Notes under the pieces: generated by a model
Told to the model about the DNA's origin: nothing
The model's database searches: none
What the model saw: only the letters and a program-made list of their open reading frames with translations
Shown here: one piece after another, positions 53,193 through 53,654 of the stretch
How the letters are laid out: every line of letters begins with the position of its first letter
How positions within the stretch are numbered: the stretch's first letter is position 1
Made by a program: the position numbers and the translations under genes
Assembly (NCBI RefSeq): GCF_029227855.1
Contig: NZ_CP074356.1
DNA length: 64,000 nucleotides
Source: Escherichia coli
GTDB taxonomy: Bacteria; Pseudomonadota; Gammaproteobacteria; Enterobacterales; Enterobacteriaceae
Direction: 5' to 3' (one strand)

Positions 53193-53654
53193 GTCTGTAT
53201 TTCCTTATCCAAAGTATGGAGAAGTTAACATTATGTTTCACAACTTCATAGTGTCTGGAAGTATTATTTTTATGACAAAGGAAATACTTTGCGCAAATAT
53301 TTTTTGTTTGATTACCAGCGAAACGTTTCTCTTATTTTAATAATTACCCACACAAAATATAGGCTTTTAATTATCAACCTTTATTATAAATAAAAGTTAT
53401 GAAATATATTCTCTTCGTAAACTTATAATTAAGAGAAAAAAACTCACTGCATGGCCATACAAGCCAGGAATAAATTAGCTTCCCGTTCATCATTTTTGTG
53501 ATCTTGCGCACATCATTGAGATAACGCGCTTTCTTCACCAGTACGTTGCACGCTTTGTCAGCAGAAGATTGCAACATTCTGTCAGAAGGCCGCGAATCCC
53601 CCGTTTTGTCGTGGTAATGTATGCACTTTGTGTTAGACGGGATAGGTTTTTAAG

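Follow-up and report, generated by a model that had tools for sequence, protein, structure and literature searches.

The divergent genes iraP (52932-53192, minus strand) and ddlA (53655-54749, plus strand) of Escherichia coli are separated by a long AT-rich spacer, which raises the question of what this DNA contains beyond the promoters of the two genes and why it is as long as it is. In the 64-kb stretch of E. coli DNA analyzed here (the window) the spacer occupies 53193-53654, a length of 462 bp. It has a GC content of 34.6% versus 50.3% for the window as a whole, sinks to a GC trough of 21-23% at about 53300-53450 and contains six A/T runs of 10-16 nt. It is identical over its full length to the corresponding sequence of E. 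coli strain 7/2 and 98% identical to that of K-12, the curated RefSeq record of which has no feature within the spacer. An earlier note on this DNA, which had described an AT-rich gap of about 460 bp with long A/T tracts and no assigned feature, is borne out in these respects. Its description of the gap as unusually long holds only in part: the spacer is indeed long but not extreme, as the 40 kb around it hold nine divergent spacers, which measure 24, 119, 124, 189, 259, 351, 462, 525 and 608 bp. What that note missed was the cause of the length, namely that two genes have disappeared from this interval in the lineage leading to Escherichia.

We consider it probable, at roughly three chances in four, that the spacer is a divergent control region of composite make-up, which contains no gene itself and owes its length to being a deletion scar. 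Reading from the ddlA side, it would consist of the ddlA promoter with an extended -10 element and a 28-nt leader, followed by the orphaned class-II-type CRP promoter of a lost transporter gene, which appears to be under purifying selection across Escherichia. Beyond this would lie a fast-evolving AT-rich filler that gives rise to a chance 67-aa ORF, and finally the iraP control region, comprising a putative RbsR-type operator, a promoter P1 with an AT-rich discriminator, a second promoter P2 and the Shine-Dalgarno sequence. It is in this sense an ordinary regulatory spacer rather than a new kind of element, with two candidate sites in it that merit attention.

The anatomy of the spacer, its homologies and the gene loss come from a comparison of 80 loci encoding IraP relatives, in each of which ddlA was located (architectures were counted over 81 loci), and transcription start positions and CRP binding in vitro come from published data sets. 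The distance between ddlA and iraP is about 460 bp in the seven Escherichia loci versus about 2.4 kb in most other genera. The longer interval, seen in Salmonella, most Citrobacter, Enterobacter, Lelliottia, Leclercia, Kosakonia, Phytobacter and others, houses two genes on the iraP strand, which code for an extensin-like protein (PF06904) and an MdtG-like MFS transporter (assigned at 543 bits, below the model cut-off of 571). The MFS gene is the immediate upstream neighbor of iraP in at least 62 of the 81 loci, with the extensin-like gene also present in 50 of these and the MFS gene alone in 12. Neither gene is found in 14 loci, which belong to the seven Escherichia, a Citrobacter group, C. 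koseri, Intestinirhabdus and Klebsiella. Judging from these gene orders, the ddlA-iraP interval has undergone several independent gene losses across lineages. A ddlA-MFS-iraP locus typical of Enterobacteriaceae also appears in one record labeled 'Chryseobacterium sp. 18061', which is probably a mislabeled or contaminated assembly.

A blastn search of the E. coli spacer against all the loci showed that only its two ends are common to other genera, i.e. positions 1-82 counted from ddlA (53654-53573) and positions 324-458 (53331-53197). The gene orders point to an ancestor in which the extensin-like and MFS genes, both on the iraP strand, separated ddlA from iraP; the Escherichia lineage has lost both coding regions but kept the CRP-type promoter block of the transporter. 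The features expected of a deletion scar that were found are the flanking synteny, the intervening genes in relatives and a recognizable non-coding remnant. Coding remnants of the lost genes were not detectable in E. coli, with tblastn at a word size of 2 recovering nothing better than E=0.2. The presumed deletion junction is the most variable segment of the spacer (53435-53462, 90% variable columns), which has no significant similarity outside Escherichia. Local alignments of the segments flanking the kept promoter block (spacer positions 83-141 and 187-260, counted from ddlA) with five outgroup intervals were likewise non-significant by shuffle controls, the sole exception being a weak syntenic match (z=2.1) to the Salmonella distal-promoter region. 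Real gene stubs occur at only two loci: in C. amalonaticus only the first codons of the transporter gene persist, and in E. asburiae a stub of the N-terminus is all that is left of the extensin-like gene. In the Citrobacter NCU1 group both genes are lost with a junction that differs from that of Escherichia.

The earlier note had reasoned that the spacer must hold the promoters of both genes, and published start maps place them there, with a ddlA start about 28 nt and iraP starts 67 and 23 nt before the respective ATGs. The maps used were Cappable-seq (U00096.2, plus strand), SMRT-Cappable-seq (NC_000913.3) and two TSS sets of lower depth. Within the spacer, plus-strand Cappable-seq has only two strong starts, 400543 and 400587, and a weak one, 400561, all of them in the iraP leader, and none occurs between 398889 and 400543. 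The two lower-depth sets contain 400587 only, and the SMRT-Cappable-seq operon table lists for this locus two iraP starts and the ddlA start at 400951, and nothing else. This last start corresponds to about 53627 in the window, 28 nt before the ddlA ATG, and the ddlA promoter (53612-53627, plus strand) is most simply explained as the extended -10 element TGGTAATGT (53612-53620), whose spacing to the mapped start is appropriate, the promoter elements being predicted from this spacing. The promoter falls within the ddlA-proximal block (53573-53654, plus strand) recovered by the blastn search against the 80 loci, which is common to Citrobacter, Salmonella, Enterobacter, Kosakonia and others and has 16% variable columns within Escherichia. 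A 20-bp palindrome, CAGAAGATTGCAACATTCTG (53562-53581), is centered at about -55.5 from the ddlA start and overlaps the start of the 67-aa ORF; it is kept within Escherichia but not beyond.

On the other side of the spacer, about 367 bp from the mapped ddlA start, iraP is transcribed from two promoters on the minus strand. P1 (53259-53296) combines a -35-like TTGCGC (53291-53296), a -10 element AAAAAT (53266-53271) and the discriminator AATACT with a start at 53259, 67 nt before the ATG (Cappable-seq 400543, score 298; SMRT-Cappable-seq 401318). Its elements are kept in Citrobacter and Salmonella in an unanchored MAFFT alignment across genera (A2). P2 (53215-53227) has the -10 element TAACTT (53222-53227) and a start at 53215, 23 nt before the ATG, which is seen as 400587 in three data sets and as 401362 in the fourth. 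The Shine-Dalgarno sequence AAGGAA (53201-53206, minus strand) is invariant in alignment A2 as well as in alignment A1. P1 is probably the promoter of iraP that is activated by ppGpp and DksA, on the basis of its AT-rich discriminator. The weak -35 element, A-rich -10 element and AT-rich discriminator AATACT are as would be expected of a stringent promoter under positive control, and are consistent with the ppGpp/DksA-activated iraP promoter of E. coli in the literature (Bougdour & Gottesman 2007; Girard 2018). The -35 region of P1 is covered by an imperfect palindrome of 21 bp, AAATATTTGCGCAAAGTATTT (about 53283-53303, minus strand), which is partly kept in Citrobacter and may be a repressor site. 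Downstream, iraP and phoA (52932-53192 and 51416-52831) are reported by SMRT-Cappable-seq as one 'novel' transcription unit from the iraP promoters, so that phoA may also receive read-through from the iraP control elements.

Between the two promoter regions, the most conspicuous feature is a CRP site at 53494-53515, whose core TGTGATCTTGCGCACA (53497-53512) matches TGTGA-N6-TCACA at 9 of 10 positions (one mismatch). It continues on the minus strand into the rest of an orphaned promoter block, AAAAATGATGAACGGGAAGCTAATTTATTCCTGG (53463-53493), with a -10-like TAATTT at 53472-53477 and a predicted start at about 53463-53465. The 50-bp block from 53514 to 53465, which reads TGTGCGCAAGATCACAAAAATGATGAACGGGAAGCTAATTTATTCCTGG on the iraP strand, is nearly invariant in eight Escherichia sequences, with 22% variable columns versus 65-90% in the flanks (Fisher p=5e-9). 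The origin of this block becomes apparent from the other genera: in 38 non-Escherichia loci TGTGA-N6-TCACAAAtATGATGAcnGGGAAGATAAAA sits 125-128 nt before the ATG of the MFS gene, and the Escherichia block aligns in register with the sequence ...GGGAAGATAAAA(T/C) of the promoter of that gene. In the relatives this promoter consists of a consensus CRP site, no -35 element and a hexamer of the TAAAAT type 27.5 bp from the center of the site. The same distance to a -10-like hexamer is kept in all genera. No known RNA element was found in the transporter leader of the relatives.

This organization is reminiscent of class II CRP-dependent promoters such as galP1 and melR, in which a near-consensus TGTGA-N6-TCACA is followed by a -10-like hexamer (TAAAAT in Citrobacter, CAAAAT in Salmonella and TAATTT in E. 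coli) without a -35 element, and we infer that the ancestral block of the MFS gene was a promoter of this class. The distance from the center of the CRP site to the -10 element is about 27.5 bp here as against 29.5 bp in the textbook class II arrangement, and membership of the class in the relatives is a prediction from this layout. Unlike class II promoters, the E. coli block is followed by no gene and has no mapped start.

Binding of CRP to the E. coli site is documented by a Footprint-seq preprint (PMC12871828, 2026), which reports the site ttTGTGAtcttgcGCACAtct with its center at 401077, assigned to 'ddlA / iraP', and an estimated Kd of 1.2 nM in vitro. The footprinted site is the same sequence as the CRP site of the spacer. 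The preprint lists it among its novel sites, since earlier in vivo and SELEX lists do not include it (PMC12871828). The gene-loss history offers an evolutionary origin for this site, which the 2026 genome-wide study had flagged as novel and left unassigned. Measured from the ddlA start the site is at about -121, and from that of iraP P1 at about -246; these spacings fit no standard (class I or class II) geometry of CRP activation. An action of CRP on ddlA was considered and rejected, as no plausible -10 element exists on the ddlA side at a class I or class II distance and the site is about -121 from the mapped start. A full-text search of the literature found no paper on CRP control of iraP other than the Footprint-seq table. 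Elsewhere in the window, another CRP-like site with one mismatch, CGTGACATTTTTCACA, is present at 18662-18677.

The second candidate site is a palindrome upstream of iraP, TAAGAGAAACGTTTCGCTGG (53315-53334, core 53318-53331), centered at about -65.5 from the P1 start, which is a putative LacI-family operator of the RbsR type. It is palindromic around a central CG and is identical to the K-12 rbsD operator (TCAGCGAAACGTTTCGCTGA) at 17 of 20 positions and at 13 of 14 in the core, in keeping with the RbsR operator palindrome AGCGAAACGTTTCGCT. It is the single match of this kind to the rbsD operator in the 64-kb window. A box of this type is found 115-133 bp before the iraP ATG in 60 of the 80 loci, spanning more than 15 genera from Escherichia to Klebsiella, Kosakonia and Phytobacter. 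Across these AAACGTTTCG is invariant, the right half GTTTCGCT almost so, and the flanks are unrelated. These counts were anchored on the motif and carry some ascertainment bias, but the unanchored alignment A2 gives the same invariant columns. Within Escherichia the box has 10% variable columns versus about 60% in its flanks (p=3e-4). By these comparisons the box is a clear phylogenetic footprint.

The two candidate sites taken together vindicate the suggestion of the earlier note that the spacer is large enough to hold additional regulatory sites, one of them being a CRP site demonstrated in vitro and the other a conserved candidate LacI-family operator. Of the two absences that the note had named as a refutation, only one is borne out: no transcripts other than the iraP and ddlA leaders were seen, but sequence conservation does reach beyond the core promoter elements.

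With regard to the factor binding the palindrome, some LacI-family proteins, Cra and CcpA among them, act as activators from positions upstream of promoters, and activation of add and udk by RbsR has been reported. The position of the box at about -65.5 from P1 is one from which Cra and CcpA activate. Unlike the rbsD operator, the iraP box has one imperfect half-site and does not overlap the promoter. Its architecture suggests direct control of iraP by RbsR, which would bind the palindrome and act positively on P1. A lead on the physiological side comes from Salmonella: deletion of rbsR lowers the level of RpoS protein with rpoS transcription unchanged, and phenocopies an iraP mutant in growth on succinate and in the RDAR morphotype, by a mechanism that is not established (Wenner et al., PLoS Genet 2024). 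Direct control of iraP by RbsR might explain this effect on RpoS, and an RbsR-type operator at a fixed position before iraP would supply a simple candidate mechanism for it. Wenner et al. (2024) themselves propose another route, by way of rbsD overexpression. The published genomic SELEX of RbsR has only 5 peaks (Shimada 2013), and a full-text literature search recovered no paper on RbsR binding at iraP (yaiB).

Both sites admit of a competing interpretation. The palindrome might be bound by another LacI-family regulator (Cra, PurR or a MalI-like protein) or by an unrelated factor, an option that we hold to be distinctly weaker than RbsR but still of some weight. The 10-bp core GAAACGTTTC is common to several LacI-family operators, including the Cra and PurR consensus, and the left half-site departs from rbsO in all genera, having A in place of C throughout and being weaker still in Enterobacter (GAAAAAC). 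Against this, the right half GTTTCGCTg equals rbsO exactly through 9 positions and is unlike both the PurR half-site at purHD (GTTTGCGC) and the Cra half-site GTTTCA, so that the half-site comparison favors RbsR over PurR or Cra as the binder. Moreover, the RpoS-protein phenotype of the Salmonella rbsR mutant matches that of the iraP mutant. In the case of the CRP block, the competing interpretation is that of a functionless fossil, to which CRP binds in vitro without regulating anything in E. coli. We regard this as rather doubtful, although it has several observations on its side, namely that no gene follows the block, that no start downstream of it is detected, that the site is absent from earlier in vivo CRP maps and that it stands at non-canonical distances from the known starts. 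With respect to the starts, Cappable-seq, SMRT-Cappable-seq and both sets of lower depth lack one at the relic promoter. The cells used for the deepest of these, Cappable-seq, were reportedly grown in M9 glucose, and if so CRP would have been inactive. What argues against a fossil is that 78% of the columns are invariant in the 50-bp block, of which about 34 bp lie outside the CRP site, versus 10-35% in the flanks. Neutral decay following a deletion that preceded the radiation of Escherichia should have erased it, as it did the coding sequences. That these further 34 bp or so are conserved as well speaks for a retained function, and the block may still act in E. coli. The CRP site would in that case exemplify regulatory DNA that has outlived its gene.

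The form that such an action might take is suggested by a comparison with Salmonella. E. coli shares with it the iraP-proximal region of about 135 bp, the RbsR-type box, the P1 region and an AT-rich block with a CATAAC motif, CATAACTTTTATTTATAATAAAGGTTGATAATT (53369-53401, minus strand), which is common to the upstream region of iraP in Salmonella and Citrobacter, where it reads CATAACTTTAAATTATGATATAGCGTGATTATT. This block contains a perfect TATAAT in E. coli and an inverted repeat CATAA-N7-TTATG in the relatives, and no Cappable-seq start lies in it. Salmonella iraP has a PhoP-dependent distal promoter with a 218-nt leader (Tu 2006; Zwir 2012) in addition to a PhoP-independent start, and the CATAAC block there follows closely on the PhoP-dependent distal start. 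Both PhoP boxes of Zwir et al. were found in the Salmonella loci, whereas the E. coli sequence has no counterpart of them. What stands upstream of the shared leader is thus the PhoP-dependent promoter region in Salmonella and the orphaned CRP block in E. coli.

The presence of the CRP block upstream of the shared leader, in place of the PhoP-dependent promoter, prompts the speculation that the deletion brought a CRP promoter before the iraP leader, where it might have been kept as a distal, cAMP-CRP-dependent promoter of iraP. Its leader of about 270 nt would make it the E. coli counterpart of the distal promoter of Salmonella with its 218-nt leader. The RbsR operator would then be situated inside the distal leader as well as at about -65.5 from P1, and would integrate ribose status, so that IraP and the stability of RpoS would respond to carbon source through both CRP and RbsR. 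We consider this full scheme unlikely as it stands and put it forward as a conjecture. IraP is one of the anti-adaptors that set the stability of RpoS, and its known inputs are ppGpp and DksA in E. coli and PhoP in Salmonella. If the scheme were true, IraP, and hence RpoS stability, would take a direct input from the carbon source by way of CRP and RbsR, a connection that is not currently described.

The remaining question is whether the spacer might, in addition to these regulatory sites, encode a product of its own. The earlier note had raised the possibility of a small RNA, and an unannotated one on either strand between the two promoters would be in keeping with the length of DNA separating the mapped starts (about 367 bp) and with the general resemblance of the spacer to the small-RNA genes of Enterobacteriaceae, which also occupy long intergenic regions conserved in parts. 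A hypothetical transcript from 53465 to 53260 (minus strand) of the single E. coli sequence also folds better than its shuffles (z=-2.7), and a sigma-S ChIP-chip region extends across the middle of the spacer. This region, SigS_94 (Cho et al. 2014; U00096.2 400179-400540, or about 53262-53623 in the window), covers more than the mapped promoters alone. However, the predicted fold is not conserved, as RNAalifold on the eight Escherichia sequences gave a consensus of only -3.7 kcal/mol with 0 compensatory or covarying pairs. An Rfam search of the spacer at E<=10 returned only chance-level matches to miRNA and snoRNA models, and a scan of the spacer for terminators recovered no terminator-like site. 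No 3' end falls between 399790 and 401850 in Term-seq, nor is there one in the Rho-dependent set. There is no additional start in the spacer on the plus strand by Cappable-seq, the ddlA-sense strand being covered by SMRT-Cappable-seq and Term-seq, and an IS1 insertion in the middle of the spacer is tolerated in at least one strain. Unlike the small-RNA genes of Enterobacteriaceae, the spacer thus has no start, terminator, conserved structure or Rfam family of its own, and the only transcripts represented in the Cappable-seq, SMRT-Cappable-seq and Term-seq data are the leaders of iraP and ddlA. A small RNA is accordingly very improbable.

A protein product is, if anything, even harder to credit. 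The 67-aa ORF (53374-53577, minus strand) is intact in this strain, its start falls in well-conserved DNA, and PGAP annotates it as a 'hypothetical protein' (WP_000942026.1 and variants) in 30 of 30 sampled E. coli RefSeq genomes, all of which might be taken to indicate a real small protein. However, the start codon, ATG in this strain, is TTG in K-12, and translation of the eight sequences showed that in six other Escherichia the frame is broken by a 1-bp deletion in a T-run or by stops. Conservation across the ORF tracks the DNA blocks (CRP site and promoter) and not the reading frame, its C-terminal half is translated AT-rich filler, and no Pfam or NCBIfam family matched it at E<=0.01. The curated K-12 record, which does carry validated small proteins, has nothing at this position. 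The poor coding appearance ascribed to the ORF in the earlier note is in agreement with these results: it is a chance ORF and not a gene, and the CDS called by PGAP is probably a systematic false positive in the sampled E. coli genomes. In practical terms, these PGAP CDS in the sampled RefSeq genomes can be marked as almost certainly spurious.

Some variation was also seen in the spacer itself across E. coli genomes. The insertion sequence found in E. coli Ec-U7 is an IS1A element located in the AT-rich middle of the spacer, at the equivalent of about 53413, where it sits between the CRP block and the iraP promoters. In 28 of the 5422 matching genomes no single aligned place covers at least 80% of the spacer. 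Three copies of the spacer reside on plasmids, and some genomes possess two copies of it.
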